A stretch of DNA of 64,000 nucleotides from positions 64,740 to 128,739 of the forward strand of contig JBAZRK010000002.1 of the NCBI GenBank assembly GCA_041663005.1, read 5' to 3'. A program made the position numbers and the translations under genes. Each line of letters begins with the position of its first letter. Position 1 is the stretch's first letter. The DNA is from Minisyncoccota bacterium. GTDB lineage: Bacteria > Patescibacteriota > Minisyncoccia > Phycocordibacterales > UBA9973. Shown in pieces: positions 1,119-45,976 of this stretch. The notes beneath the pieces are model-generated. The model ran no database searches, had not been told where the DNA came from, and was given only the letters and a program-made list of their open reading frames with translations.

Positions 1119-3833
1119 CTAATTTTCCTGGTATGTCGGCTTTTTCTTTATTTCTTGGCAAGGAACTGACGTCCCACCATTCGAGCCCGGACAAGTCCAG
1201 GTCCATTTGTCTGTCTCGTCTGCCCTGATCGTAGCGCTATCTCCTGCCCAGGTACAGAGATAATGTTTTTTGTAACACTGTCCGTTAACTTTTGGCGCAG
1301 GATCGCCACCATTACCACCGCCACAATTATTTGTGACCGTGCATTCACGCTGGAGTCCTTCGGCGTCAAGCTCGGCACAAGGAGGATTGTTGCAGACTCG
1401 TTCCTGTACTCCAACCCCACAAACTGTGTTGGTGCAAGGTCCCCATTCCCAGTCCCCAAGTTGCGGATTTACAGTTCCCTCAGCGCATTTACTACCGTCC
1501 CACTGTGTTCCTCCGACACAATTGGAATATACAGTATTTTGGGTAACCGGCGGCTCCCCATTGTTGTAGAGATAAAATGTTCGATAGTTGTAAGGCACGG
1601 TCACGGACTTAGTACCTGATTGGGAGCTTGGGGTGAGGCTGTTGCTGACAGTAATGTCAGTCATACCAGTGGCAGTGATTTTAGTAGGTATAGCTTGAGG
1701 GTTGGTGATACTCCAAGCAAGATTTACGTTACAACTATTGCCATCTTTTGCAATCGTGCAAGAAGTTGGTGAAGGGGTTAAGGTTCCCGACATAGGATTT
1801 ACCGTTGGCGTGCACTTTGCGCCGTCCCAAACGGTACCACTAACGCAAGTCGCTGGAATGTTGACGCCCGAGCCACTAGGTGAAGTAGGTACAAGAGACT
1901 TAGCATTGTTGTATAGGTAAAATGTTCGAGAGCTGTAAGGTACGGTCACAGACTGAGTACCTGATTGCGAGCTTGGGGTGAGGCTGTTGCTGACGGTAAT
2001 ATCCGGCGTCATACCTGATGCCGTAATCTTGGTTGGGGTAGCTTCGGGGCTGTTGATAGTCCAAGAAAGGTTCGTGGTGCAACTATTTGCATTAACGGCA
2101 ATCTCACACCCTGCCCCAGAAAGTGTTCCATACATCCCAGCCACAGGAGCACATTTAGTATTGTCCCAGGTCGTGCCTGAAACACAAGATGCGGTAGCAG
2201 AGTTACTGCCTAGGACTTTATTGTTGTTATATAAATAAAATATTCGAGAGCTGTAAGGCACGGTCACGGACTTAGTACCTGATTGCGAGCTTGGGGTGAG
2301 GCTGTTGCTGACAGTAATGTCAGTCATACCAGTGGCAGTGATTTTGGTAGGGGTAGCTTCGGGGTTAGTAATGCTCCAGGAAAGGTTAGATGTACAGCTG
2401 CTGCCACCAGAGGCGATGGTGCAGTTTGGCACACTGATTGTCCCTGACATAACCGCGGCACATTTAGTACCATCCCACTCGGTATTCGTATCACAGTAAG
2501 CTTTGGCTGTATCTTGATCAAGAAGGGTTCCGTCATTGTAAAGATAAAATGTTCTCTCGCCGTTGGGTGAGCCACCCTCTACACCATATATTGCGGAACT
2601 GTTGTTGCCCGTACCCACAGTAACATTCGTCGGAGTCGTAACAGCAGAGGTGCCAACAGGATTGGTCGTGGTCCAGTTTAGAGAACTAGTGCAAGTATCA
2701 GCATTGAGGGCAATGGTACAGTCTGTGGCAGTAAGGTTGCCCGACATAGGAGATGGCGGAGGTGGTGGAGGTGGCGATGATGTCTTGTCGATGGCACAGT
2801 TAGCAGTAGTGCCTCCATTAGTGCTTTCGCAATCCCACTTATACTGGGTAGTACTGTCTGCGGTATCCTTAAAGTTTCCCACGTTACAAGTGTTGAGGAC
2901 AAGCGGGTCAGAACACTGACCAGGGGGAGTTACTGCAGGAGCCTTTTGCTCTGAACAAGAAACACTTGTCCCCGCATTACTGCAAGTCCAAGTATACGCC
3001 GCAAGTCCGCTCACATTGTTCGAGCTAACCGCGCTCGCCGGAGAACAGTCGTAGTGGGTGGTAGAACAACTAGGAGGAACTGGAATAGCATTAAATTTAA
3101 AGGTAAAGGCGCAATCTTTCGAAACAGCTCCTGTATTATAGACCGTACTATTCGGAAAAGTAGCACTAGTAGGAGAAAATACACCAGCCGTAGCACAATC
3201 TGAAGGATCCCAAGAAACAAGCGAGGAGGTGGAGTAGCCTGAGGTCGGAGTAACTGTTATCTGAGAAGTGCTTCCGCTTTCAACTTTACTTGGCGAAGGA
3301 GTGCTGACTGATCCCCCCGCATTCGCACTCGCGGTAACGTTGTAAGTAATAGGCGCAGCAGCTATTGTAAGTGTACTAGAAGACCTGATTGCTGTTTTAT
3401 CCAGATTGTCTGTCACTTCAACCTTTACTATGTAGTCTTCAGCTGGAATATTCGAAAAAGTCCTACTGCTCCCTGTAAAATCAGTGCCCAAAGCTGCCGA
3501 CCAACAATCTCCCACAGGTCTAGTATTAGTCTGGTATGTTAATGGAATTGTTTGCCCAACCATTGACGCTGGTCCTGCAGTTATTGTGGCCGTTGCTGAC
3601 ATAGCTGCTATTGTTGGATCAGAATAGGTACCTCCTCCTTCACCGCTCTGTGAGCAAGTTGTCCCAGCTTCAACCGACAGTTGCCCACTAGGAATACTTA
3701 CAGTAATACTATCTCCGCTTACGCTGGCGCTTAAGGTAAACACAAGCGACTTGGCTCCGCCAATTGCACTCGCTTTATAAAAAGGAATAATAACTACTAA
3801 TAATAAGGGAAGGAAAACTAGTAATTTTTTCAT
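1119..3833 (-). CDS. Large secreted, cell-surface repeat protein of 904 aa. It has a signal peptide, four roughly 105-aa Cys-containing tandem repeats, a poly-Pro linker and a Cys-rich C-terminal region
   Basis: N-terminus is MKKLLVFLPLLLVVIIPFYKASA. A repeated unit GMTDITVSNSLTPSSQSGTKSVTVPYSSR.FYLYNN occurs four times, with visible nucleotide-level repeats of about 320 nt. There is a PPPPPPPSP linker. The C-terminus contains W.W..C...CG.G...R.C, a thrombospondin-type-1-like motif. Confidence 0.75.
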   Translation of the reverse strand: MKKLLVFLPLLLVVIIPFYKASAIGGAKSLVFTLSASVSGDSITVSIPSGQLSVEAGTTCSQSGEGGGTYSDPTIAAMSATATITAGPASMVGQTIPLTYQTNTRPVGDCWSAALGTDFTGSSRTFSNIPAEDYIVKVEVTDNLDKTAIRSSSTLTIAAAPITYNVTASANAGGSVSTPSPSKVESGSTSQITVTPTSGYSTSSLVSWDPSDCATAGVFSPTSATFPNSTVYNTGAVSKDCAFTFKFNAIPVPPSCSTTHYDCSPASAVSSNNVSGLAAYTWTCSNAGTSVSCSEQKAPAVTPPGQCSDPLVLNTCNVGNFKDTADSTTQYKWDCESTNGGTTANCAIDKTSSPPPPPPPSPMSGNLTATDCTIALNADTCTSSLNWTTTNPVGTSAVTTPTNVTVGTGNNSSAIYGVEGGSPNGERTFYLYNDGTLLDQDTAKAYCDTNTEWDGTKCAAVMSGTISVPNCTIASGGSSCTSNLSWSITNPEATPTKITATGMTDITVSNSLTPSSQSGTKSVTVPYSSRIFYLYNNNKVLGSNSATASCVSGTTWDNTKCAPVAGMYGTLSGAGCEIAVNANSCTTNLSWTINSPEATPTKITASGMTPDITVSNSLTPSSQSGTQSVTVPYSSRTFYLYNNAKSLVPTSPSGSGVNIPATCVSGTVWDGAKCTPTVNPMSGTLTPSPTSCTIAKDGNSCNVNLAWSITNPQAIPTKITATGMTDITVSNSLTPSSQSGTKSVTVPYNYRTFYLYNNGEPPVTQNTVYSNCVGGTQWDGSKCAEGTVNPQLGDWEWGPCTNTVCGVGVQERVCNNPPCAELDAEGLQRECTVTNNCGGGNGGDPAPKVNGQCYKKHYLCTWAGDSATIRADETDKWTWTCPGSNGGTSVPCQEIKKKPTYQEN

Positions 3834-3970: not shown

Positions 3971-4013
3971 CCCCGACGTAAAAAGTCGGAGTCCCGACCT
4001 CAAAGCGTCGGGA
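3971..4013. repeat. Copy A of a roughly 45-nt double-hairpin palindromic repeat (intergenic, upstream of nusA)
   Basis: ccccgacg-taaaaa-gtcggagtcccgacc-tcaaa-gcgtcggga. It shares its architecture with copies at 14453, 24231 and 36464. Confidence 0.65.
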
Positions 4014-4028
4014 TAAAAAAGCAAAATT

Positions 4029-5171
4029 ATGTTAGACCTAAAAACATTCAAATCCGCATTGGAACAGCTAGAAGAAGAGAGAAAAATCCCTCAAGCCAAG
4101 ATACTCGAAGCCATAGAGCAAGCTATGGCCGCCGCTTATAAAAAGGACTACGGCAAGAAGGGCCAAATAATTCGCGCTAAGTTCGACCTTGAAACTGGTA
4201 AAACAGACTTTTACCAGGTAAAAATAGTTGTGGACGACAGCATCGCCATAATGGACCACGACGAAGAAATTCCCGAGGACGACGAAAGAGTGCATTTTAA
4301 TTCCGAACACCACATCCTAATAGATGACGCCAAGAAAATTAAAAAAGGCGCCGAAGTTCACGATGAAATAATTTTCCCGTTGGAAGCCAAGGATGACTAC
4401 GGCCGTATTGCCGCCCAGACTGCCAAGCAGGTTATTGTCCAGAAAATCCGCGAAGCTGAACGCTCCTCCATTATTGACGAATATGGCGGTAAAGAAGGTG
4501 AGGTTGTTTCCGGTGTAGTGCAGAAGGTGGAACGAGGCAACGTATATGTGGACTTCAACAGAGCCACAGGTATTTTGCCTGCCGAAGAACAAATCCCGGG
4601 AGAATACTGGGAACGCGGACGCAGAGTGCGCGCCTATCTCTACAGCGTCGAAGATACTCCAAGAGGCATAAATCTCCGTCTCTCTCGTACACATCCGAAA
4701 TTTTTGGAGCGTTTGTTCGCAATGGAAGCTCCTGAAATAGAGAACGGTATAGTAGAAATTAAGTCCGTGGCCCGCGAAGCCGGCGCCCGTTCTAAAATCG
4801 CCGTCTTCTCGAACGACGAACACATCGACGCCGTCGGTTCTTGTGTGGGGCAGAAAGGTACTCGAGTCAACACCATTACCGCTGAACTGTCTGGAGAAAA
4901 AATTGATATAATCACGTGGTCGGAAGATCCGAAACAGTTAGTTTCGAACGCTCTCTCTCCGGCAAAAGTTATTTCCATAGAAACCAATGACGAAGAACAC
5001 AAGGCTTCGGTAGAAGTGGCAGACGACCAGCTCTCACTCGCGATAGGCAAGGGCGGGCAAAATGTGCGCCTAGCAGCCAAGCTCACCGGCTGGAGAATAG
5101 ACATCAAGGGCGCCGGCGGAGAAGTAGCTTCCACCGATGGTGAGAAAGTTGAGGTAAAAGAAGAAGAATAA
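4029..5171 (+). CDS. nusA: Transcription termination/antitermination factor NusA
   Basis: N-terminal NusA domain, S1 domain and two KH domains (LAIGKGGQNVRLAAKLTGWRIDIK). Short Gram-positive-type form without AR domains. Confidence 0.9.
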   Translation: MLDLKTFKSALEQLEEERKIPQAKILEAIEQAMAAAYKKDYGKKGQIIRAKFDLETGKTDFYQVKIVVDDSIAIMDHDEEIPEDDERVHFNSEHHILIDDAKKIKKGAEVHDEIIFPLEAKDDYGRIAAQTAKQVIVQKIREAERSSIIDEYGGKEGEVVSGVVQKVERGNVYVDFNRATGILPAEEQIPGEYWERGRRVRAYLYSVEDTPRGINLRLSRTHPKFLERLFAMEAPEIENGIVEIKSVAREAGARSKIAVFSNDEHIDAVGSCVGQKGTRVNTITAELSGEKIDIITWSEDPKQLVSNALSPAKVISIETNDEEHKASVEVADDQLSLAIGKGGQNVRLAAKLTGWRIDIKGAGGEVASTDGEKVEVKEEE

Positions 5172-11247: not shown

Positions 11248-14200
11248 TTATAAATATTCCTTATAAGATTTTATTTCCAAGTCTTCGACTTTATAACGGG
11301 CTAGCGCTTTAATAAAAGCTCTAGCGAGGTGCAGGTCGGTAAAGAGAGGCACTTGGTTGTCCACCGTTGCGCGACGAATATGGAAACCGTCAGTGAGCAT
11401 TCGGCCGGATTCTCCTTTGGCATCCGGATCGGCAACTTCCCTCTTGCTTAAATTTACCACAAAAGAAACTTTCTTGCCTTCAATGATACTTAGAGCGTTC
11501 GGCATTCCTTCAGACGCTTTACGTACCATCTGACATTGAATCTTCTGCTTGTCGAGGAATTCAGCAGTAGTGTCGGTTGCAAAAATATTGTAGCCTAGGT
11601 CGCGGAGGAGCCCTGCCGCTTCTAAGAATTTAGCCTTATTGACTTCTCCGCCGAGCGACAGAAGCACATTTTTATTTTTGAAGTCAAACTTATTGGTACT
11701 CATAATGGATTTTATGAGCGCTTCGTCATAGTCCTTGCCGAAACACGCCGCTTCTCCAGTAGAAGCCATCTCAACCCGAAGTACTGGGTCCGCCCCCAAG
11801 AGCCTAGCGAAGGAAAATTGCGGAGATTTGACTACCACGCTTTTTGGATACTCCACTCTTTGAGGCTTGGCAATTCCTAAGAAACTTTCAACCGAAACTT
11901 CCGGCAAATTAATATCCATTGCTTTAGAGAGTAGTGGAAACGTTCGGCTCGCGCGCGCATTCACTTCTATCACATATGGTCTATTGTCTTTAACTAAAAA
12001 TTGTATATTGAAGGGCCCTGTAATATTTAACCCTTTAGCTATTTTCTTAGAAATTTCGCGAATTTGAAATTCAGTAGAAGCATAAACTCGCTGGGTTGGG
12101 TACACAATCGTAGCATCTCCAGAGTGCACTCCTGCGTTCTCGACGTGTTCCGAAATAGCGTATACCATCACCTCTCCTTTCTGCGCCACAGCGTCAAATT
12201 CGAGCTCCTTGGCGTTCTCGACATATTTGGAGATTGTCACCGGGTGCTCCGGGGAAAGAACTGCCGCGTTGTTGATAAAATCATGCATCTGTCTTTTGGA
12301 ATAACACACTCGCATCGCCGCACCAGAAAGTACATAGGACGGACGCACTAAGACTGGAAAGCCCTCGATCTCTGCGAATTTTTCGGCATCTAGCTTGGAT
12401 ACGAAACTCTGCCATTTCGGTTGGAGTATCCCGAGTTTATCTAGAAGCGCCGAGAAGGCGTTCCTGTCTTCGGCTCGGTCAATGTCTTCAGCTTTCGTTC
12501 CTAAAATGTGAAAGCCGGTACCGGAAAGCTTTTTTGCCAGGTTGTTCGGGCGCTGTCCGCCGACAGAAATGATTGTGCCTTCGGGTTTTTCAAACATACA
12601 TATGTCGGCAACTGTTTCGAAAGACAAGTTTTCGAAATACAGACGGTTAGACATATCGTAATCCGTTGAAACTGTTTCTGGGTTGCAGTTGATGATGATG
12701 GATTTCTTGCCATATTTGCCAAGCGCCAGCGCCGTGTAAACCGAGGACCAGTCGAACTCCACTGAAGACCCGATGTGATACGGACCGGAACCTAGAACGA
12801 TAATCGCGTTCTTGCCCAAAGGCGCTACGTCGTGATGCGCACCGTGATAAGTCAGGTATAGGTAATTCGTTTTCGCGGGAACTTCTCCGGCTAAAGTATC
12901 GATAGCGAAAACAAACGGAGTCACTCCTAACTTTATACGAATCTTGCGAATTTCGAGTTCTTTTTTACCGCAAAGTTTCGCTATTTTCTTGTCAGAAAAT
13001 CCATTTTGCTTTAAGGCTAACAAGTTTTCTCGGTTTAATATTTTTGTTTTAAGAAACTTTTTTTCAACGTTGATGATATTTTGGATACGATACAAAAACC
13101 AAGGATCAATACCAGTAATTTTATAAATTTGTTCCACAGTTTTTCCGGTTTTGAGTGCCTCCGCAACGGCAAAGACTCGACGTGGAGTCGGCGTTTCAAG
13201 GAATTTATCTGCCTCGGCCTTATTTTGAAAACCATTATCGGTCACACTTTCTTCTGCTCCGCGCGCCATCCTGACAGCTTTCTCGAAAGCTTCTTCGAAG
13301 GTTCGCCCGATGGCCATTACTTCTCCGACAGATTTCATCGCGCTACCTATTCGCTCCGCTGCGCCTACGAATTTCGACAAATCCCATCGCGGCATTTTCA
13401 CTACGATGTAGTCGAGGGCCGGCTCGAAAAAGCTCTGGGTAACTTTCGTAATTTTATTTTCCACTCCTAGTAAACTATGTCCCAACGCCAATTTCGCCGC
13501 TACGTAGGCTAGAGGATACCCTGTGGCCTTCGATGCCAGGGCGCTTGAGCGTGAGAGGCGGGCGTTAACTTCAATCACGTAGTAATCCGGGTCGTCGGAC
13601 TTGGGGTTCGGGTTTAAGGCATATTGCACATTGCATTCCCCTACAATTTTTAAACTCTCTACTATTTTAATGCTGGCTTCGCGAAGACGATGATATTCTT
13701 CGTTGTTGAGGGTCTGACTCGGCGCCACAACGATGGAGTCCCCGGTGTGAATACCAAGCGGATCGAGGTTCTCCATATTGCAAACGGTGACAATGTTGCC
13801 GAAGCTATCGCGCACAACTTCATACTCAACTTCTTTAAAGTGGTGGAGATATTTTTCAATCAATACTTGCGGAGACACCGCCAGCGCGCCCTTAACTATT
13901 TCTTCAAGCTCAGTGTTGTTATAAGCGACGCCGGATTTCTGTCCCCCGAGGGCGAAAGCTGCACGCACCATTAACGGGAAGCCGATTCTATCTGCAATCT
14001 CTTTCGCTTGAGTAAAGTTAACAGCCGCCCCGGAGGCCGGTACTGGAATATTGATACCTTTCAAATGGTGAGCAAATTTTTCGCGGTCTTCGGTAAGTTC
14101 AATCGAGGAAATAGGGCTACCTAAAATTTCTGCATTGTATTTTTTGAAAACTCCCTTGTGCGAAAGCGCTACCCCGCAGTTAAGCGCTGTCTGTCCGCCA

Positions 14201-14526
14201 AAAGAAAGCATTATGCCGTCGGGGCGTTCCTTTTTAATGACTTGCTCCACGAAAAAAGGCTCCACCGGCAAGAAATAAACTTCGTCGGCAAAATCTTTCG
14301 AGGTTTGATAAGTGGCGATATTCGGGTTTATCAAAACCACTTTAATCTTTTCTTCTTTCAGGGCTTTAATGGCCTGACTACCGGAATAATCAAATTCCCC
14401 TGCCTCGCCGATTTTGAGCGCCCCCGACCCTAGTATGAGAACTTTTTTAAAAGCCGACGCTTTCGGTCGGCTCCCCGACCTTTGGGAGCGTCGGGGTTTA
14501 TTAGGTTTTTTATTTTCTTTTTGCAT
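11248..14526 (-). CDS. carB: Carbamoyl-phosphate synthase large subunit
   Basis: Duplicated ATP-grasp halves, GEFDYSGSQA near the N-terminus and an MGS-like C-terminus. 1092 aa. The N-terminal extension is encoded by palindromic repeat copy B. Confidence 0.95.
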   Translation of the reverse strand: MQKENKKPNKPRRSQRSGSRPKASAFKKVLILGSGALKIGEAGEFDYSGSQAIKALKEEKIKVVLINPNIATYQTSKDFADEVYFLPVEPFFVEQVIKKERPDGIMLSFGGQTALNCGVALSHKGVFKKYNAEILGSPISSIELTEDREKFAHHLKGINIPVPASGAAVNFTQAKEIADRIGFPLMVRAAFALGGQKSGVAYNNTELEEIVKGALAVSPQVLIEKYLHHFKEVEYEVVRDSFGNIVTVCNMENLDPLGIHTGDSIVVAPSQTLNNEEYHRLREASIKIVESLKIVGECNVQYALNPNPKSDDPDYYVIEVNARLSRSSALASKATGYPLAYVAAKLALGHSLLGVENKITKVTQSFFEPALDYIVVKMPRWDLSKFVGAAERIGSAMKSVGEVMAIGRTFEEAFEKAVRMARGAEESVTDNGFQNKAEADKFLETPTPRRVFAVAEALKTGKTVEQIYKITGIDPWFLYRIQNIINVEKKFLKTKILNRENLLALKQNGFSDKKIAKLCGKKELEIRKIRIKLGVTPFVFAIDTLAGEVPAKTNYLYLTYHGAHHDVAPLGKNAIIVLGSGPYHIGSSVEFDWSSVYTALALGKYGKKSIIINCNPETVSTDYDMSNRLYFENLSFETVADICMFEKPEGTIISVGGQRPNNLAKKLSGTGFHILGTKAEDIDRAEDRNAFSALLDKLGILQPKWQSFVSKLDAEKFAEIEGFPVLVRPSYVLSGAAMRVCYSKRQMHDFINNAAVLSPEHPVTISKYVENAKELEFDAVAQKGEVMVYAISEHVENAGVHSGDATIVYPTQRVYASTEFQIREISKKIAKGLNITGPFNIQFLVKDNRPYVIEVNARASRTFPLLSKAMDINLPEVSVESFLGIAKPQRVEYPKSVVVKSPQFSFARLLGADPVLRVEMASTGEAACFGKDYDEALIKSIMSTNKFDFKNKNVLLSLGGEVNKAKFLEAAGLLRDLGYNIFATDTTAEFLDKQKIQCQMVRKASEGMPNALSIIEGKKVSFVVNLSKREVADPDAKGESGRMLTDGFHIRRATVDNQVPLFTDLHLARAFIKALARYKVEDLEIKSYKEYL
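14453..14496. repeat. Copy B of the double-hairpin palindromic repeat (inside the carB 5' end/N-terminal extension, overlapping the carA-carB junction)
   Basis: gccgacgc-tttc-ggtcggctccccgacc-tttgg-gagcgtcgggg. Confidence 0.6.
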
Positions 14527-23606: not shown

Positions 23607-23635
23607 ATGATACCATTTTAATTATCCATAGCAAG

Positions 23636-23669
23636 CCCCCACACCTACTTTTTTAAGTAGGTGTGGGGG
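23636..23669. repeat. Perfect 34-bp palindrome (15-bp arms CCCCCACACCTACTT, TTTT loop) flanked by GCAAG/CAAG direct repeats
   Basis: Seen directly. It shares the CCCCCACACCT core with the inverted repeats flanking the GIY-YIG gene. It lies in a divergent promoter region, not a terminator position. Confidence 0.6.
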
Positions 23670-23695
23670 CAAGTATCGTATGATATACTGGTCCT

Positions 23696-24790
23696 ATGTT
23701 TTACAAGCACAACGATACTTATACCGTAGAGAGCGTTACTTCTGGGCACCCGGACAAAATCTGTGACCAGGTCTCGGACGCTATTTTAGATGCCTATTTA
23801 ACCGTAGATTCTAAGGCTCGCGTCGCTGTTGAGACCTTCGGCGGCCACGGCAAGCTCACCATCGGCGGCGAAATCACGTCCACTGGCAAGGTTGACTACG
23901 TGCAGATTGCACGGGACGTTTACAAGAAAATAGGATACGAAGATAACCTAGAAATCTCTGCCCACCTGGTAACACAATCCCCTGACATTGCGATGGGTGT
24001 CGACAGTGGCGGCGCCGGTGACCAAGGCATAATGTACGGCTTTGCCACTGATGAAACTCCGGAATTTTTGCCAAAGGGCGTTGTCCTCGTGCACAAACTT
24101 GCAAAACGTTTAGAAGAAGCGCGAAAATCTGGAGAAATTAAATGGCTACGCCCAGACGGCAAGACTCAAGCAACATATGCAGACGGGAAATTGCATACAG
24201 TATTAGTAAGCACTCAGCATGCCTTAGAAACCCCGACGCCAGAAGGGGTCGGGGTCCCGACCACAAGCGTCGGGATTAAAAAAGAAATCACCGAGAAAGT
24301 TATTTATCCGTTACTTTCTGAAACAGAAAAACAAACTGTGAAAATACTTGTAAACCCCACAGGTCAATTTATCCAAGGCGGATTCGAAGCCGACACAGGA
24401 TTAACGGGTAGAAAAATAATGGTAGACACTTACGGCGGAATAATTCCCCACGGCGGCGGATGTTTCTCAGGAAAGGACGCCACGAAGGTTGACCGCTCTG
24501 GCGCGTATATGGCGCGATTCGTAGCCAAGAACTTGGTTGCTAATGGCTACGGCAAGGACGTTCTCGTCTCCGTAGCGTACGCAATTGGTATGGCAGAGCC
24601 TTTGATGGTTGAAGCCATTAATGAAAAGGGCGAGGACCTTTCAGAAATTGTAAAAAGGAATTTCGATTTCCGCCCGCAGGCCATAATAGAGCGCCTAGGT
24701 TTACGCGCTCCAATTTTCAGCCAGACTGCCGCCTACGGCCACTTCGGTAAAGTTGATTTGCCTTGGGAAAAAATAGAAAAAATTGTGTAA
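23696..24790 (+). CDS. metK: S-adenosylmethionine synthetase
   Basis: GHPDKICDQVSDAILD and GGGAFSGKD-type motifs. Contains an in-frame roughly 15-aa insertion encoded by repeat copy C. Confidence 0.95.
   Translation: MFYKHNDTYTVESVTSGHPDKICDQVSDAILDAYLTVDSKARVAVETFGGHGKLTIGGEITSTGKVDYVQIARDVYKKIGYEDNLEISAHLVTQSPDIAMGVDSGGAGDQGIMYGFATDETPEFLPKGVVLVHKLAKRLEEARKSGEIKWLRPDGKTQATYADGKLHTVLVSTQHALETPTPEGVGVPTTSVGIKKEITEKVIYPLLSETEKQTVKILVNPTGQFIQGGFEADTGLTGRKIMVDTYGGIIPHGGGCFSGKDATKVDRSGAYMARFVAKNLVANGYGKDVLVSVAYAIGMAEPLMVEAINEKGEDLSEIVKRNFDFRPQAIIERLGLRAPIFSQTAAYGHFGKVDLPWEKIEKIV
24231..24275. repeat. Copy C of the double-hairpin palindromic repeat, inside metK and read in frame
   Basis: ccccgacgc-cagaag-gggtcggggtcccgacc-acaa-gcgtcggga encodes TPTPEGVGVPTTSVG between conserved MetK blocks. 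Confidence 0.65.
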
Positions 24791-35149: not shown

Positions 35150-35967
35150 TGAAAATAATAAGCTGGAACGTCAACGGAATACGGGCAGTGCACAAGAAAG
35201 GACTTTTTGTACCTTTTGTGAAAAAATACCAACCTGATATTTTATGCCTGCAGGAAACCAAGGCTGAACAACACCAGAGCCAAGTTGACCTCGACGAATA
35301 TGAAGAATATTGGCATTCTGCGGAACGGAAGGGCTACAGCGGTACAGCAATTTTCACCCGGATAGAGGTTAAACCTCTATCTGTGGTTTTTGGTTTGCCG
35401 AAAAGTATCGAAAAAAAATATAATTTGAAAGATAAATATGGTGACCCGAACACCGAGGGCAGAATAATTTGCGCAGAATTTAAAGATTTCTTTGTAGTGA
35501 CTGTTTACACCCCAAACGCTAAGGATGACCTCTCTCGCCTCCCCCTCCGCCACAAGCATTGGGATCCAGCATTTCTGGAATATATGAAAAGTTTAGAAAA
35601 TCCTTCGGCAAGCTCAGGACGTACCGGAAAACCAGTAATTTTTTGCGGAGATTTAAATGTGGCCCACACGCCGGACGACCTCGCTCGTCCGAAAGAAAAT
35701 GTCGGCAACAAAGGCTTCACTGACGAAGAGCGTGAAGGAATTCAAAATATAATTGATGCAGGCTTCGTAGACACTTTCCGAATATTCACTAAAGGCAACG
35801 GGCACTACTCCTGGTGGAGCCACTTTGCCAACGCTCGCGCACGGAACGTCGGCTGGCGCATCGACTATATTTTCGTCTCACAAAAATTAGCAAAGAAGGT
35901 TAAAAAGGCTGAAATTTTACCTGAAGTCCTAGGCTCAGATCATTGCCCCGTCTCTATAGAGCTATAA
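35149..35967 (+). CDS. xth: Exodeoxyribonuclease III (AP endonuclease)
   Basis: MKIISWNVNGIRA, CLQETK, GDLNVAH, SDHCPV motifs. Confidence 0.9.
   Translation: MKIISWNVNGIRAVHKKGLFVPFVKKYQPDILCLQETKAEQHQSQVDLDEYEEYWHSAERKGYSGTAIFTRIEVKPLSVVFGLPKSIEKKYNLKDKYGDPNTEGRIICAEFKDFFVVTVYTPNAKDDLSRLPLRHKHWDPAFLEYMKSLENPSASSGRTGKPVIFCGDLNVAHTPDDLARPKENVGNKGFTDEEREGIQNIIDAGFVDTFRIFTKGNGHYSWWSHFANARARNVGWRIDYIFVSQKLAKKVKKAEILPEVLGSDHCPVSIEL
35361..35381. repeat. 21-nt perfect palindrome GATAGAGGTTAAACCTCTATC inside xth. An identical copy is at 43195-43219
   Basis: Exact 23-nt identity between the two loci, seen directly. Confidence 0.6.
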
Positions 35968-36808
35968 GCTTTGGTTTTACATTCCCGAACCATTTCCGGG
36001 TTAGCGCATCTATGGTCTGAGTTTCGTCGGTGATTAAAATTTTTGCGGTTTTGCCACGAGAAAGCTTTTTTGATATCTCTTCGTGCCTTGTGAGATAATT
36101 TTTTAGTTTTATCGGAACAATTTCATCTTGAGAAATTATTTTCACTTTAGTTCCAACTATTTTCTTTATCTCCTTCTTGTATATAGGATAATGGGTACAA
36201 CCCAAGACTAGCGCATCAATCTTTTTGCCCACAAAGGGCTGTAAATATTTTTTTATAAACGGCAGCGCGCTCGCTTTCTCCCCCGCTTCCGCTAGTGGCA
36301 CGAGCATCGGTGCCGAATTCTGGAATACTTTTGTTTTTTTATTTAACTTTTGAATTTCTTCTGGGAAAGCCCTCGACGCTACCGTGCCCGCCGTCCCAAG
36401 CACACCAACATTTTTAAACTTCGCGGCTTCTTCTGCCGCCGGAATTAAAACTCCAAGAACTTTCCCCGACGCTTTCGGTCGGGGTCCCGACCCCTTACGG
36501 CGTCGGGATTGATTTTTAAAATATTTCTGGAGGGGCTTCAGTGCCCGAGCAGAGGAAGTATTGCAGGCAATTATAACTATCGCGCAATTTTCTTTCTGGA
36601 AAAGATGGTTCACCGCTTCCTTGGTGAATTCGAACACCGCTTGGTGCGAGCGATTACCATAGGGCACCCTCTTGGTATCCCCTAAATACACATAGTCATA
36701 TTGAGGCATTGCTCTCCGTATTGCCTTCGCCACAATAAGCCCGCCCAACCCTGAATCAAAAATTCCTATTTTCTTCCCGTTAGAAATTTTATTATTTTTT
36801 CTTAGCAT
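35954..36808 (-). CDS. murI: Glutamate racemase
   Basis: GIFDSGLGGL, CNT, GCTHYP motifs. Contains an in-frame roughly 16-aa insertion (SRRRKGSGPRPKAS) encoded by repeat copy D. Confidence 0.9.
   Translation of the reverse strand: MLRKNNKISNGKKIGIFDSGLGGLIVAKAIRRAMPQYDYVYLGDTKRVPYGNRSHQAVFEFTKEAVNHLFQKENCAIVIIACNTSSARALKPLQKYFKNQSRRRKGSGPRPKASGKVLGVLIPAAEEAAKFKNVGVLGTAGTVASRAFPEEIQKLNKKTKVFQNSAPMLVPLAEAGEKASALPFIKKYLQPFVGKKIDALVLGCTHYPIYKKEIKKIVGTKVKIISQDEIVPIKLKNYLTRHEEISKKLSRGKTAKILITDETQTIDALTRKWFGNVKPKLIAL
36464..36508. repeat. Copy D of the double-hairpin palindromic repeat, inside murI and read in frame
   Basis: ccccgacgc-tttc-ggtcggggtcccgacc-cctta-cggcgtcggga. Confidence 0.65.
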
Positions 36809-42636: not shown

Positions 42637-43201
42637 ACTCCTTCTCGGCACAACGGCGGTAGTAATAGAATTGGCGAGCTATGCCATTTATTTTTTCGGC
42701 ATCTGGAAAGGCAAAACCAAACCACATGCTTTCACTTGGCTGGTGTGGGGAATTTTGAATGTTGTGGCTTTTGCTGCTGTCTTAATATCCGGCGGTGAAG
42801 CTGGGTCTTGGGTTCTTGGAGTAAATGCACTTGCTTGCCTTATTATTTCCGGCATCGGTTTCTACCAAAAACACGTAGTGTACGATACACATGATTGGCT
42901 AGCACTTTTAGGCGCCTTGGTTGGAGTATTCTTGTGGTGGCTAACTTCTAATCCCCTATACGCGGTGATACTAGTATGCCTGTCCGACGGTATCGGATCT
43001 GTGCCTATATTTAGGAAAGCCTACCGCGCGCCCTTCGAAGAAAACGTGCCGGCGTTTGCGGTTGGAATATTATATTACCCTCTGGCAATTTTAGCGCTCG
43101 AGTCACTTTCTCTCACCACTTGGCTTTATCCTGCGTTTGTAATACTGCTTGATGGTGCTCTCGTAATCTTAATTCTCGCCCGCCGAAAACAATCCAGATA
43201 G
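42626..43201 (+). CDS. Hypothetical polytopic membrane protein
   Basis: Five to six predicted TM helices. Its stop codon is embedded in the 43195-43219 palindrome. Confidence 0.5.
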   Translation: MEYKLLLGTTAVVIELASYAIYFFGIWKGKTKPHAFTWLVWGILNVVAFAAVLISGGEAGSWVLGVNALACLIISGIGFYQKHVVYDTHDWLALLGALVGVFLWWLTSNPLYAVILVCLSDGIGSVPIFRKAYRAPFEENVPAFAVGILYYPLAILALESLSLTTWLYPAFVILLDGALVILILARRKQSR

Positions 43202-43219
43202 AGGTTAAACCTCTATCTG
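43195..43219. repeat. Palindrome CAGATAGAGGTTAAACCTCTATCTG, second copy. Acts as a bidirectional terminator-like hairpin between convergent genes
   Basis: Identical core to 35361-35381. Followed by gtgtttttggtg. Confidence 0.6.
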
Positions 43220-43221
43220 GG

Positions 43222-44799
43222 TTACTTCCTAACCCCGTGTTTTTGGTGCAATTTTCCCACTTCAGCTTCTTCAAGTTCTTCTTTTTTCTCTTTGCCGCGC
43301 TCGCCGAGCGTGCGAAGTTCATCATCGCCAAGCATATTTAGAGATTTTACTAGTTCGGATAGGTGCTCCACGGTGTTTTTCTCCGGCGCATCAAGCACCT
43401 CCTCGAGAAGTGCGTGGAGAATCCACCCCATTCGAGGTCCAGGCTTAATGCCTAGCTCTTTTTGCAAGAATCCCCCGTCAATTTTAAGCTGTGAAACAGA
43501 AATGGGGTCGCGGAGAGCTTCTTCCACCATTGCGAAATACTTCCTGAGGCGATAAGGCGCTTCCTTCTTCTTCATTCCCACCCTGTCGCACTCACGGACA
43601 TCCATCAAAAGCCAAATATCATCTTTCCCAACTTTCGCAATTATTCGACGCACGGCGGAGAGAGTAATTTTTTCAGTATCAGAAAAAAACATATGGTTCC
43701 GCACCATCTTTTCCACAAGTTCAATTTCATCTCGCGAAAATTTCAAACGCTCCATAATCTTTTTCGCCATTCGCGCGCCCACAACTTCGTGGCCGTAAAA
43801 TGTGTACATTTTCTTGGCCGAGCCACGAGGCTTCTGCGAATGGTTGACGTTGCTCTGCAGGAAATCCTTCGCAGAAGCATCTGGCGAGGCAACAGACAAA
43901 CGCCTCGTTCGCGGTTTGCCCACGTCGTGGAACAGTGCCGAAAGCCTTATGCCTAAAGGCCAATTCTTGTCTGCCGCATGCTGAGCTGCAAGTAGCAAAT
44001 GATTCCAAACATCATAAATATGTTCCCCGGATTGATCGCAACCTATTCCCTCTTCTAACTCCGGAATTATGTATTTGAGAATTCCTAATTTCTGTAGCAT
44101 CACAATTCCGCTTGCAGGATTTTCCGACATAATTATTTTCACAAACTCGTCGCGAATTCTTTCAGCGGAAATTTTTTTTATTAACTCCGCATTTTTCACA
44201 ATACTTTGCGTTGCTTCTTCGGACACAGAAAAATCGAGTTGGCAAGAGAAGCGAATTGCTCGGAGCATTCTGAGTGCATCTTCAGAAAATCTATCGTCGG
44301 GGTTTCCTACTGCACGAATAGTTTTGTCCTTTATGTCCTTTATGCCGTCGAACAAGTCTACGAGCTGTCCGTTAGAGTTTAAAGCTATCGCATTAATGGT
44401 AAAGTCACGTCTCTTAAGGTCGTCTTCTAGCTTGTCGCTAAATTTTACCTCATCTGGGCGCCTAAAATCGCTGTATTTTGCCTCAATTCTGTAAGGAGTT
44501 ACCTCAATTATATTATAGGTGAGTGTTTCAGGTGAAACATCGGACTTCCCTGTTTCTCGTGAAACGCACACCCCGACTGTGCCAAAACTATTTTCATACA
44601 CTGTTTTCTCAAACAGAGCCATTATTTGCTCTGGCGTCGCGTTCGTAGTTACATCCCAGTCTTTGGGCGTTCTGCCAATCAAAAGGTCTCGAACACACCC
44701 TCCTACCAGGTACGCTTCAAAATCCGCTTTTTCCAGAGCAGTTGTTACATATGAAACATCGGCAGGTACTTTCGATATTAAATTTTTATAGGAGTCCAT
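43222..44799 (-). CDS. cca: CCA-adding enzyme / tRNA nucleotidyltransferase with HD domain
   Basis: Pol-beta NTase motif GGCVRDLLIGRTPKDWDVTT, and an HD domain (HD...DVGK). Confidence 0.85.
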   Translation of the reverse strand: MDSYKNLISKVPADVSYVTTALEKADFEAYLVGGCVRDLLIGRTPKDWDVTTNATPEQIMALFEKTVYENSFGTVGVCVSRETGKSDVSPETLTYNIIEVTPYRIEAKYSDFRRPDEVKFSDKLEDDLKRRDFTINAIALNSNGQLVDLFDGIKDIKDKTIRAVGNPDDRFSEDALRMLRAIRFSCQLDFSVSEEATQSIVKNAELIKKISAERIRDEFVKIIMSENPASGIVMLQKLGILKYIIPELEEGIGCDQSGEHIYDVWNHLLLAAQHAADKNWPLGIRLSALFHDVGKPRTRRLSVASPDASAKDFLQSNVNHSQKPRGSAKKMYTFYGHEVVGARMAKKIMERLKFSRDEIELVEKMVRNHMFFSDTEKITLSAVRRIIAKVGKDDIWLLMDVRECDRVGMKKKEAPYRLRKYFAMVEEALRDPISVSQLKIDGGFLQKELGIKPGPRMGWILHALLEEVLDAPEKNTVEHLSELVKSLNMLGDDELRTLGERGKEKKEELEEAEVGKLHQKHGVRK

Positions 44800-44808
44800 T
44801 TACCTTTG

Positions 44809-44880
44809 TGCACCCGGAGGGATTCGAACCCCCAACGACAGTTCCGAAGACTGTTGTGATATCCATTTCACTACGGGTGC
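44809..44880 (-). tRNA. tRNA-Arg (anticodon TCG)
   Basis: Cloverleaf with acceptor gcacccg/cgggtgc, anticodon loop cTTCGga and T-loop ttcgaat. CCA is not encoded. Confidence 0.7.
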
Positions 44881-45013
44881 AGGATTATTTAATAATACTT
44901 CATTATTTTACACTATTTAAAAAATATTGGCAAATCATGCTTATTTTACAAGGTGAATTGATAATTGCATTAACCCTATATTAATTATATAATACAACAG
45001 TATTTTTTTAACT

Positions 45014-45084
45014 GCGGTCATGGTTTAGTGGTAGAACACGTCCTTGCCAAGGATGAGACGGGAGTTCGATTCTCCCTGGCCGCA
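45014..45084 (+). tRNA. tRNA-Gly (anticodon GCC)
   Basis: Acceptor gcggtca/tggccgc, D-loop with GG, anticodon loop ttGCCaa, T-loop ttcgatt. No encoded CCA. Confidence 0.75.
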
Positions 45085-45322
45085 CTTCGACAGACTCAGC
45101 ACAAGCACCTCAGGTGTCCTTTACTTTCTTCCCATAATATAAGGATTTTGTGGAAAACTGGGGATAACTATGTGAGTAATGGGTATAAAGGACAGTGAAA
45201 AGTGCTGTCTTTGAAGAGGGATTTTAGAGAATTTAGCTTGTTAAATAAGGATATTATAGTAAAAGACATCGAAAATTGCTATTTTGTTTCACGTGAAACG
45301 TGTTTCTTATGAAACAACACTA

Positions 45323-45733
45323 ATGCCTAAGGTTTTTACCTCAAAAAGCCAAAAAACTGGAGAAATCGGTGAAAATATAGCCGTAAAGTTTCTCATGAAA
45401 CAAGGATTTTCCATAATTGAGCGTAATTACACTAAAAAGTGGGGTGAGATAGATATCATAGCAGAACGTACTGGTAAACTGCATTTTGTGGAAGTTAAGT
45501 CAGTGTCAAAGCCTAACCTCGAGGGTGTTACACGGGAAACACTTGATCAGTACCACCCTGAAGACAATATGCATCCGTGGAAACTTAAGCGGTTGTCTCG
45601 GACAATTCAGACATACCTAGTGTCGCAAAAAGTGCCAGACGATACAGAATGGCAGGTGGACTTACTAGTAGTATTTCTAAACCTTACGGACAAGAAAGCC
45701 CGCGTAAAAGTAGTCAGCGATATAATTTTATGA
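45323..45733 (+). CDS. YraN-family (UPF0102) predicted endonuclease
   Basis: GEIGENIAVKFLMKQGFSIIERNY...GEIDIIA pattern of UPF0102. The ATG at 45323 is preferred. Confidence 0.7.
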   Translation: MPKVFTSKSQKTGEIGENIAVKFLMKQGFSIIERNYTKKWGEIDIIAERTGKLHFVEVKSVSKPNLEGVTRETLDQYHPEDNMHPWKLKRLSRTIQTYLVSQKVPDDTEWQVDLLVVFLNLTDKKARVKVVSDIIL

Positions 45734-45789
45734 TATATTCAAATAGCTATAAGTGTAAACGGGCTTGCCCGACAAAGCTTTAGCATCGG

Positions 45790-45860
45790 CGGGCCGTAGT
45801 ATACCGGTAGTACAAGCGCTTTGGGAGCGTTTAGACTGGGTTCGATTCCCAGCGGCCCGA
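45790..45860 (+). tRNA. tRNA-Pro (anticodon TGG)
   Basis: Acceptor cgggccg/cggcccg, anticodon loop ttTGGga, T-arm ctgggttcgattcccag. Confidence 0.7.
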
Positions 45861-45905
45861 CAAGTTGAGGTTTTTGCGGGCTTGCCCGCCGAAGCCTTGG
45901 CGCAG

Positions 45906-45976
45906 GCGGGATTAGTTTAATGGTAAAATAACAGTTTTCCAAACTGTGGTTAGGAGTTCGATTCTCCTATCCCGCA
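45906..45976 (+). tRNA. tRNA-Gly (anticodon TCC)
   Basis: Acceptor gcgggat/atcccgc, anticodon stem acagt/actgt with loop ttTCCaa, T-loop ttcgatt. Confidence 0.65.

Follow-up and report, generated by a model that had tools for sequence, protein, structure and literature searches.

A 45-nt palindromic element in frame within metK probably belongs to a dispersed double-hairpin family of Patescibacteria

Results

A double-hairpin element lies within the reading frame of metK

We analyzed 64,000 nt of DNA from a Minisyncoccota bacterium (contig JBAZRK010000002.1 of assembly GCA_041663005.1, positions 64,740 to 128,739 of the forward strand; hereafter the window), in which the S-adenosylmethionine synthetase gene metK carries a 45-nt palindromic element, here called copy C, inside its open reading frame (ORF) (Table 1). 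The MetK product contains all three S-AdoMet synthetase domains (Pfam PF00438, PF02772, and PF02773) and is a 100% match to an NCBI entry named methionine adenosyltransferase from a Candidatus Paceibacterota metagenome-assembled genome (MAG). Codon differences from the ortholog at locus L001 number 184 synonymous and 55 non-synonymous, indicating that the gene is intact and under purifying selection.

Copy C has the sequence CCCCGACGCCAGAAGGGGTCGGGGTCCCGACCACAAGCGTCGGGA, laid out as CCCCGAC-loop-GTCGGGG T CCCGAC-loop-GTCGGG A. Counted from the sequence, it is 73% G+C, compared with 40-48% for the window. Its translation is flanked in MetK by ...VLVSTQHALE on the N-terminal side and IKKEITEKVIYPLL on the C-terminal side, and the stretch of MetK at the element-encoded segment reads HALETPTPEGVGVPTTSVGIKK. 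Folded as RNA or single-stranded DNA, copy C forms two tandem hairpins at -31.2 kcal/mol (z = -4.7 relative to dinucleotide shuffles). An initial annotation of the window had proposed that positions 24231 to 24275 are a palindromic repeat copy inserted into metK with the frame maintained and no stop codon introduced. Indeed, the repeat is real, folds as a double hairpin, and has relatives elsewhere in the window, and the metK frame runs through it without interruption. The same proteins are encoded in assemblies from NCBI, JGI, ENA, and Logan, where the contigs measure 307 kb and 226 kb, and a second insert-bearing MetK (P0002, described below) occurs on six contigs from different samples. This recurrence in separate assemblies and samples indicates that the element is not an assembly artifact.

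Table 1. Positions in the window of metK, the element in it, and the related copies
Feature	Coordinates	Strand	Description
metK, host gene	23696..24790	+	S-adenosylmethionine synthetase; intact 364-aa ORF
Copy C, 45-nt double-hairpin element in frame in metK	24231..24275	+	Codons 24230-24274, residues 179-193, TPTPEGVGVPTTSVG
Long hairpin of copy C	24230..24255	+	ACCCCGAC-G-CC-AGAA-GG-G-GUCGGGGU; inner 2-bp stem and bulge; minimum-free-energy and centroid structure
Short hairpin of copy C	24256..24274	+	CCCGAC-C-ACAA-G-C-GUCGGG
Copy A, intergenic	3971..4012	+	16 nt upstream of the nusA start (nusA 4029..5171, +); co-oriented with nusA
Copy B, 5' end of carB	14453..14496	-	carB 11248..14526 (-); 10 codons in; residues 11-25, PRRSQRSGSRPKASA, of an N-terminal extension
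Copy D, in frame in murI	36464..36508	-	murI 35954..36808 (-); read as SRRRKGSGPRPKASG; same gene-relative orientation as copy C, other frame

Four related copies occur in the window

Six matches to the hairpin pattern CCCGAC-N4-14-GTCGGG are present in the window, where 0 are expected, and the central 14-mer GTCGGGGTCCCGAC, with at most two mismatches, likewise has six occurrences against 0.19 expected. Four doublets are present in the 64 kb; they have common stems and outer ends (CCCGACGC...GCGTCGGG) and differ in their loops, and their folds have z-scores of -4.3 to -5.2. No copy in the window lies within three mismatches of copy C, so the copies are related rather than identical; the murI copy is 85% complementary to the metK copy. 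All four are co-oriented with the gene that they occupy or precede. The frame in which the element is read in metK differs from that used in murI and carB, two in-frame hosts that the initial annotation had not included.

In murI, exactly 45 nt have been inserted cleanly into an A-run, and the target is not duplicated. Its product carries an Asp_Glu_race domain, and the closest MurI homologs (72-74% identity) are shorter by exactly 15 aa at the element. Empty sites read TTT AAG AAT AAA AAA ATC or AAT AGG AAA ATA, and the filled site reads AAT CAA [TCCCGAC...GTCGGGG, 45 nt] AAA GTT. In CarB, the CPSase_L_D1 domain begins at residue 27. Among the 150 best CarB representatives in a set of 1.84 billion proteins, nearly all have matches that start at query residue 21-27 and subject residue 2-8, indicating that the element-containing N-terminal extension is lineage-specific; read from the sequence, carB has no in-frame start codon downstream of the element. 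The intergenic copy A has an ortholog upstream of nusA in a related Paceibacterota genome (L008, position 7709, reverse strand) that is identical at 39 of 40 positions. In another MAG (L124, position 1653), the same variant and a similar 3' leader (GGGAyAAAwAA..TTATG) stand in front of a different gene. This pattern hints at a role in, or co-mobility with, a 5' leader.

The MetK insertion is a lineage-specific indel, likely in a surface loop

The MetK indel is lineage-specific. Across the 120 closest MetK clusters (74-100% identity), the segment is missing from 118 and is present only in the cluster of the window protein (P0001) and in P0002, which is 85% identical to P0001 and comes from Nomurabacteria RIFOXYD2_FULL_35_12. 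The modal length of the 120 proteins is 354 aa, compared with 364 aa in the window. The linker of the window protein reads H-ALE-[element]-IKKE; in relatives it reads H-xxxxxxEE-IKKE, with eight residues such as SPDVSQEE. Without the 45 nt, the window linker is five codons shorter than that of any relative, and a 15-nt loss therefore accompanied or followed the insertion: the 45-nt element was added, five neighboring codons were lost, and the net gain is 10 aa. The initial annotation, which gave typical MetK proteins about 10 fewer residues here, was correct in this respect, the gap to the solved structure 3iml also being 10 residues. Its expectation of a precise indel among close relatives holds for the sharp, lineage-specific boundary at the repeat and fails for the size, which it had put at roughly 15 aa.

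The metK genes encoding P0002 (loci L001 to L004, L134, and L135) carry the nucleotide element at the same codon, with 43 of 45 positions identical in L001. The stem is intact in the L134 variant, indicating that a CCG>ACG change in L001 and L135 is derived. P0001 and P0002 also have in common the five-codon loss, a preceding Leu-Glu, and the rarer CACAAGC loop variant. No MetK with the element peptide and without the nucleotide repeat was found in the 120 nearest clusters. Such relatives would have made the segment an ancestral feature; the only other peptide-bearing MetK, P0002, has the DNA element too.

In alignments to 3iml and human MAT2A, the insert stands opposite a gap that follows the strand ending in ...STQH and precedes a helix. 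An AlphaFold model built on a shallow input alignment of 64 sequences, 81-87% identical, likewise places residues 176-190 as coil between a strand (165-175) and a helix (191-206); the predicted confidence (pLDDT) is below 50 in this segment and averages 59 overall. MetK is built so that its helices face the solvent and are remote from the active site, which is at the dimer interface. From the alignment gaps and this architecture, the insert likely sits in a solvent-exposed loop. The insertion site is probably neutral for the enzyme. The annotated placement in a surface loop is thus borne out for the position between a beta-strand and a helix, opposite a gap in solved structures, and is likely for surface exposure, given the low-confidence model.

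The HU-to-metK region of the P0002 genome is syntenic with that of the window except for two restriction-modification modules (L001, 491-2898 and 6137-8287), one with a HinfI-like endonuclease and an N6/N4 methyltransferase and the other with Bsp6I and a DNA methylase fused to a LexA/S24 domain. In other Patescibacteria, orthologs of MetK and MurI (P0101, P0120, P0105, P0066/P0077, P0164, P0178, P0174, P0199, and P0222 among them) have small insert peptides of other kinds, which are lineage-specific and reappear in proteins unrelated to one another. Examples are PARNASHSDAGG at nearly the same MetK site, LGHSPTGEA / GRSPTGEPY, LARRSFSEGG, LPLRRGRRKEGVL, YNATRRLMGES, and an insert of 37-41 aa; these look like translations of further repeat families.

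The family is widespread in Patescibacteria and often intragenic

A pattern fitting all four window copies, applied to one genome per species, matched at least 119 genome stretches. Among the matches listed, 93 of 119 stretches are labeled Patescibacteria, 8 are labeled only as bacterium, and 18 carry other taxa; the Patescibacteria lineages belong to many classes and include Saccharibacteria, Nomura-, Paceibacterota, Doudna-, Berkel-, Kaiser-, Zambryski-, Wolfe-, Adler-, Yanofsky-, Taylor-, Vogel-, and Gottesmanbacteria. In metagenomes, 15 contigs matched a more restrictive pattern built for the metK subfamily. On these contigs, Pfam-confirmed proteins with in-frame copies are SecA (two insertions), RpoD (two), the delta' subunit of Pol III, an RNase T/ExoX-type exonuclease, ribosomal protein L3, the L7/L12 hinge (several species), the NusA tail, and the P0002-type MetK, and TrmD carries the element at the same site in two species. 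Hosts in the species-representative genomes are SecA again, at the same C-terminal site, HisRS, DnaG, an RNase J-like nuclease, two PIF1-like helicases, a class I aminoacyl-tRNA synthetase, an SMC/RecN-type ATPase, GatB, and a sigma factor. Single proteins can carry the element twice: SecA of L126 has separate in-frame copies at about aa 174 and aa 700, and RpoD of L127 has two copies 10 residues apart in its basic N-terminal region. Overall, the family is phylum-wide and often intragenic, with 46 of about 130 sampled copies lying deep inside ORFs of at least 180 codons.

Taylorbacteria RIFCSPLOWO2_12_FULL_43_20 carries an identical, perfectly palindromic homodimer, CCGACGCTTCGGTCGGAGCCCCGACCGAAGCGTCGGG, at three loci (L082, L109, and L114), which suggests recent amplification or homogenization within that genome. 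Chitinophagaceae/Bacteroidota genomes (L037, L065, L080, and L110) contain CCGAC/GTCGG doublets with a GCATC spacer, twice in one MAG; they could represent a relative of this family in another phylum, or contigs that were binned wrongly.

Intragenic copies are filtered for frame and orientation

After duplicates and orthologs were collapsed, 42 distinct intragenic sites remained, each in an ORF of 180 codons or more and with 15 or more codons to either side. Core lengths that preserve the frame are found at 36 of these 42 sites, compared with 36 of 84 other copies (Fisher p = 3e-6). The long hairpin comes first on the sense strand at 31 sites and second at 6 (p = 4e-5). Frame usage is similarly uneven: the PTPEGVG-type frame is used 16 times, the SRRPxGSGxRP-type 13 times, and the third frame twice. 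These filters on length, orientation, and frame are what translation predicts, and they argue against ribosomal bypass or RNA excision. The element is therefore probably translated in its host proteins.

The flanks of intragenic copies are A-rich (A-A-R | CC-CCGAC ... GTCGG-G | R-A-A-A), and many intergenic copies have complementary outer ends (agccCCGAC...GTCGGggct). The orientation bias may arise in part because the element favors A-runs, and coding strands have more of these. Across the family, the long hairpin keeps a bulged G and an inner stem of 2-5 bp whose sequences vary (CC/GG, CAC/GTG, CGC/GCG, CTC/GAG, CTCGC/GCGAG, TTCTC/GAGAA, and others). This variation among complementary sequences, rather than folding energy, indicates that the structure is kept by compensatory change; the energy advantage of the inner stems over shuffled loops is modest (-8.9 versus -7.8 kcal/mol). 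The short hairpin often has GNRA-like loops on the sense strand (CGAAAGC, CGCAAGC).

Discussion

We consider it probable that the segment in metK is a copy of a dispersed family of double-hairpin elements of about 45 nt, similar to repetitive extragenic palindromes (REPs) and REPINs and characteristic of Patescibacteria (the candidate phyla radiation, CPR), and that it is translated as a tolerated loop of MetK. In this explanation, a copy would have inserted where the coding strand of metK is rich in A. With a length that is a multiple of three and no stop codon, it would be kept in the mRNA and translated as a 15-residue loop rich in Pro, Gly, Thr, Ser, and Val, which would sit on the protein's exterior, linking a beta-strand to a helix. 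Loss of 15 neighboring nucleotides would have cut the net gain to 10 residues, and MetK would remain functional. The metK event would then have many counterparts in the core genes of these bacteria with small genomes, selection having retained copies according to frame, orientation, and how well the peptide is tolerated. As for spread, our guess is a hairpin-recognizing single-strand DNA mechanism of the IS200/IS605-RAYT type or another trans-acting factor conserved in the phylum.

Several observations weigh against this explanation. The case for translation rests on sequence statistics, and the structural evidence for an exposed loop is weak. No mobilizing enzyme was found with the element: a recurrent transposase family is absent among 131 ORFs flanking elements (Pfam), a phmmer search with an E. 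coli YafM probe found no RAYT-like ORF among 4070 ORF segments in about 1 Mb of element-bearing loci, and within 10 kb of metK or murI there is nothing mobilizing except a Xer-type recombinase. Nor is there a consistent target-site duplication at any offset for k = 3-5 relative to shuffled pairs, the best offset accounting for 3-6 of 129 copies. Further, the conservation of orthologous copies does not fit a purely neutral passenger, and the MetK tree does not fit a single old vertical insertion; both results are considered below.

A crude HUH+Y motif screen for a RAYT/Y1 transposase was likewise negative. The ORFs flanking elements encode housekeeping functions, with ribosomal protein L10 appearing seven times because the L7/L12 hinge is a recurrent site. 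AAAG...AAAG flanks, considered as a target duplication, reflect A-rich composition. The two imperfect, bulged hairpins on the same strand, the lack of a duplication, and the strand-specific placement bring the element closest to those that act as single-stranded hairpins (REP/RAYT and IS200/IS605), and by analogy it may be akin to them, no enzyme having been found.

Orthologous copies are conserved at the nucleotide level far beyond their hosts. Between the metK genes of the window and L001, the element is identical at 43 of 45 nt, compared with 73.6% nt identity in the rest of the gene, and at 14 of 15 third positions, compared with 135 of 350 elsewhere (p = 2e-5). In trmD (L133 versus L137), the element is identical at 44 of 45 nt and at all 15 third positions, whereas the rest of the gene is 58.7% identical, with 34% at third positions. 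Similarly, the rplL element (L125 versus L138) is identical at 45 of 45 nt, compared with 64% for the rest of the gene and 35% for its third positions. A purely neutral passenger fails to explain such conservation where silent sites of the host are saturated.

These data raise the possibility, which we regard as credible enough to weigh and still improbable, that the doublet is a functional nucleic acid signal, recognized sequence-specifically and under purifying selection even inside ORFs. Such a signal might act as a structure in the mRNA, or as a site that some protein conserved among Patescibacteria binds or processes, and is compatible with a mobile origin. It would account for the near-identity of orthologous copies, loops included, in metK, trmD, and rplL and upstream of nusA, for the occurrence of one stem sequence in classes as distant as Saccharibacteria and Paceibacterota, for the strong sense-strand bias, and for the GNRA-like loops and compensatory inner-stem variation. 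A gene-specific role is at odds with the unrelated host genes and unrelated loop sites, however, and most close relatives lack the element at each site. One metK lineage carries the stem-breaking CCG>ACG change, copy number and location differ between genomes, and the orientation bias could stem from the preference for A-runs.

The history of the metK insertion is also less simple than one old vertical event. In a neighbor-joining tree of MetK, P0001 and P0002 are sisters in 0 of 200 bootstraps, and each groups with insert-free MetKs (193 and 197 of 200, respectively), so that a single old vertical insertion is insufficient to explain the distribution; the tree is based on a single gene whose proteins are 80-87% identical and may not mirror the genome phylogeny. 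An alternative that we hold to be rather unlikely is that separate lineages gained the element repeatedly at one codon of orthologous genes, by site-directed insertion or by homing-like transfer. It is favored by the tree, by the identity of the element at 43-44 of 45 nt between the P0001 and P0002 genes when their flanks are at the background level of about 72-74%, and by other hosts in which one site is occupied more than once (trmD, rplL, and SecA in its C-terminal part). In other genomes, copies of this subfamily that are not orthologous are equally alike, those of L128 and L129 differing from the window metK copy by 1 nt. On the other hand, the five-codon loss, the Leu-Glu, and the CACAAGC loop common to both MetK lineages point to a single origin of the segment, the filled sites have no target motif in common beyond A-richness, and the co-converted flanks expected from homing are absent, no wider recombination tract having been found around the metK insert. 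Taken together, the conservation of orthologous copies and the non-sister MetK clades could reflect an old insertion under nucleotide constraint with a misleading gene tree, lateral spread, or site-directed re-insertion.

A broader proposal unites these two alternatives: the CCCGAC double hairpin would be a recognized element of the whole phylum, maintained at the nucleotide level inside essential ORFs by a conserved protein or RNA process or by re-homing into the same codons. We advance it as speculation that is more doubtful than not by a good measure. If it is true, the near-identity of orthologous copies and their spread over non-sister MetKs would be signatures of a new maintenance or homing mechanism and not of neutral hitchhiking.

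Very improbable is that the segment never appears in the protein, either because ribosomes skip it by programmed bypass or because it is removed from the RNA. Precedents for bypass are the GC-rich byp inserts of Magnusiomyces mitochondria and the gap in T4 gene 60, and a very stable GC-rich hairpin insert in an AT-richer gene is byp-like. However, the frame-preserving lengths and the avoidance of one frame among intragenic copies would be unneeded under bypass or excision, and the metK borders (GAA | ATT) lack matching take-off and landing codons. Removal from RNA is opposed by the lack of any ribozyme, intron, or other Rfam match and by a length of 45 nt, far too short for an intron or intein. 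Finally, next to no credence attaches to a peptide that is ancestral or convergent in the MetK lineage, or to an assembly chimera, with the likeness to the repeat incidental: its one support is that P0002 has the peptide, and it is refuted by the 118 of 120 nearest MetKs that lack the peptide in the ortholog alignment, by the same nucleotide element in P0002, by DNA from a family with 0 copies expected by chance, and by recurrence in several independent assemblies and samples.

We next compare the element with systems already described. In Rickettsia, a host-dependent bacterium with a small genome, the palindromic elements known as RPEs (Ogata et al. 2000, as summarized in PMC3733652 and PMC10969869) are inserted without a frame shift into numerous housekeeping genes that are unrelated to one another and still functional. 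Their translation adds peptides at the protein surface, and those summaries give them no associated transposase. RPEs were still put forward in 2024, in a review, as the most extreme instance of palindromes translated within working genes (PMC10969869). The Patescibacteria element resembles RPEs in behavior only, inserting in frame into functional ORFs in a manner compatible with the fold, again with no transposase found. It differs from RPE-1 (about 100-150 bp) in being 45 nt long, consisting of two short hairpins, and belonging to another phylum, and it differs from RPEs in that its orthologous copies are far better conserved than the host genes.

REP, BIME, and REPIN sequences with RAYT in Enterobacteria and Pseudomonas are GC-rich imperfect hairpins of about 20 nt, often in inverted pairs that may fold as one longer hairpin; they are dispersed in many copies without target duplication and keep their consensus over long evolutionary spans (PMC3337134, PMC3733652). 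The element is like them in being a dispersed, short, GC-rich imperfect palindrome, with units of 19-26 nt, four doublets in 64 kb, and at least 119 matching genome stretches. REPs are mostly extragenic and typically lie downstream of genes, whereas three of the four window copies are inside ORFs. Unlike GTAG-REPs and REPINs, the element has no GTAG tag (its ends are A-R-C-C-CCGAC and GTCGG-G-R), and its spacer is 1-4 nt. No RAYT was found among the 131 flanking ORFs, among the 4070 ORF segments, or within 10 kb of metK or murI. The CGTC REP superfamily, which includes Rickettsia RPE-4 and RPE-6, Neisseria dRS3, and Wolbachia CGTC-4, has an unpaired CGTC followed by a stem of 8-9 bp that starts with A-T pairs, a loop of 4-5 nt, and a CCA tail, with no known transposase; its units mostly form head-to-head dimers, some spaced by 1-2 bp, and can be intragenic (PMC3733652). 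CGTC at the outer end of the unit (GCGTCGGG), the tight inverted doublet, the intragenic copies, and the failure to find a transposase recall this superfamily. Membership, raised by the GCGTCGGG ends, is rejected: the GTC is paired in a G/C-first CCCGAC/GTCGGG stem of 6-7 bp, there is no CCA tail, and the loops are 4-14 nt with inner stems. The family thus seems to behave like RPEs or intragenic REPs and, judged by its motifs, to fit neither published REP superfamily.

Three other classes were considered and rejected. The element has inverted ends like a MITE (miniature inverted-repeat transposable element), but lacks a target duplication, which makes a classical MITE mechanism unlikely, and is 45 nt long, compared with the usual 70-300 bp. 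A DNA uptake sequence would show an excess of single sites, which is not seen: the window has 11 CCGACGC/GCGTCGG sites, and the four doublets account for 8. A known structured RNA or self-splicing element is not indicated, because no Rfam covariance model matches the element at gathering or permissive thresholds (best permissive score, 18 bits against a cut-off of 60).

Palindrome-associated elements derived from IS200/IS605 have two subterminal imperfect hairpins on the same strand and insert strand-specifically by a short target without duplication. The element has the same-strand hairpin pair, the strand-specific placement, and the lack of target duplication; unlike these elements, it has no TnpA or TnpB that we could find, and its 45 nt are below known examples. 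Its orientation in the window also tracks the gene strand (minus at 14.4 kb, plus at 24.2 kb, and minus at 36.5 kb) and not a single replication direction, unlike IS200/IS605. The GC clusters and byps of yeast mitochondria are short GC-rich palindromic inserts in AT-richer genomes, found in protein-coding genes as well; ribosomes bypass the byps, so the frame need not be kept. The element is similarly a GC-rich palindromic insert inside protein-coding genes, and differs from byps in being filtered for frame and most likely translated.

The initial annotation had called a selfish palindrome in an essential gene unusual outside Rickettsia, which is too strong. REPs and MITEs inside genes are on record for Opitutus terrae, Thauera, Coxiella, enterics, and other bacteria (PMC3733652, PMC10969869), and Di Nocera et al. 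report both GTAG and CGTC REPs inside genes in Opitutus terrae, Thauera, R. conorii, and others (PMC3733652). A search of full-text literature on palindromic repeats in CPR/Patescibacteria found no description of this element, which is not proof that it is unpublished.

The element would extend the Rickettsia-like habit to a second, very different group with reduced genomes, in a form that is much smaller and common to whole classes. Such insertions would explain many small lineage-specific loops in CPR proteins, which matters for annotation, alignment-based phylogeny, and structure prediction, and the element offers a simple DNA signature for the phylum. Its extreme conservation, sense-strand bias, and lack of an evident transposase suggest that something must recognize and preserve the 45-nt hairpin pair across an ancient radiation, a proposition that can be tested.

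Other repeats and genes in the window

A second, unrelated palindrome family is built on CCCCCACACCT, with four sites in the window against 0.35 expected. One site, at 23634-23670, is a perfect 13-bp hairpin, CCCCCACACCTAC-TTTTTTAA-GTAGGTGTGGGGG, between a divergent dksA-like gene and metK. Two others, at 746-783 and 1043-1080, lie within inverted repeats of about 65 nt that bound a segment of about 390 bp (717-1104), which could be a MITE-like unit. A palindromic 28-mer, ACCCGGATAGAGGTTAAACCTCTATCTG, occurs at 35356-35383 and 43195-43222, the two being 93% complementary.

The minus strand from 1119 to 3833 encodes a 904-aa Cys-rich protein that looks secreted, with three tandem repeat units of about 330 nt (1559-2423) that are 84-91% identical; the syntenic gene in a relative has CARDB/TSP_1 Pfam matches. 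The only Rfam matches at gathering score in the window belong to a cluster of four tRNA genes at 44809-45976.

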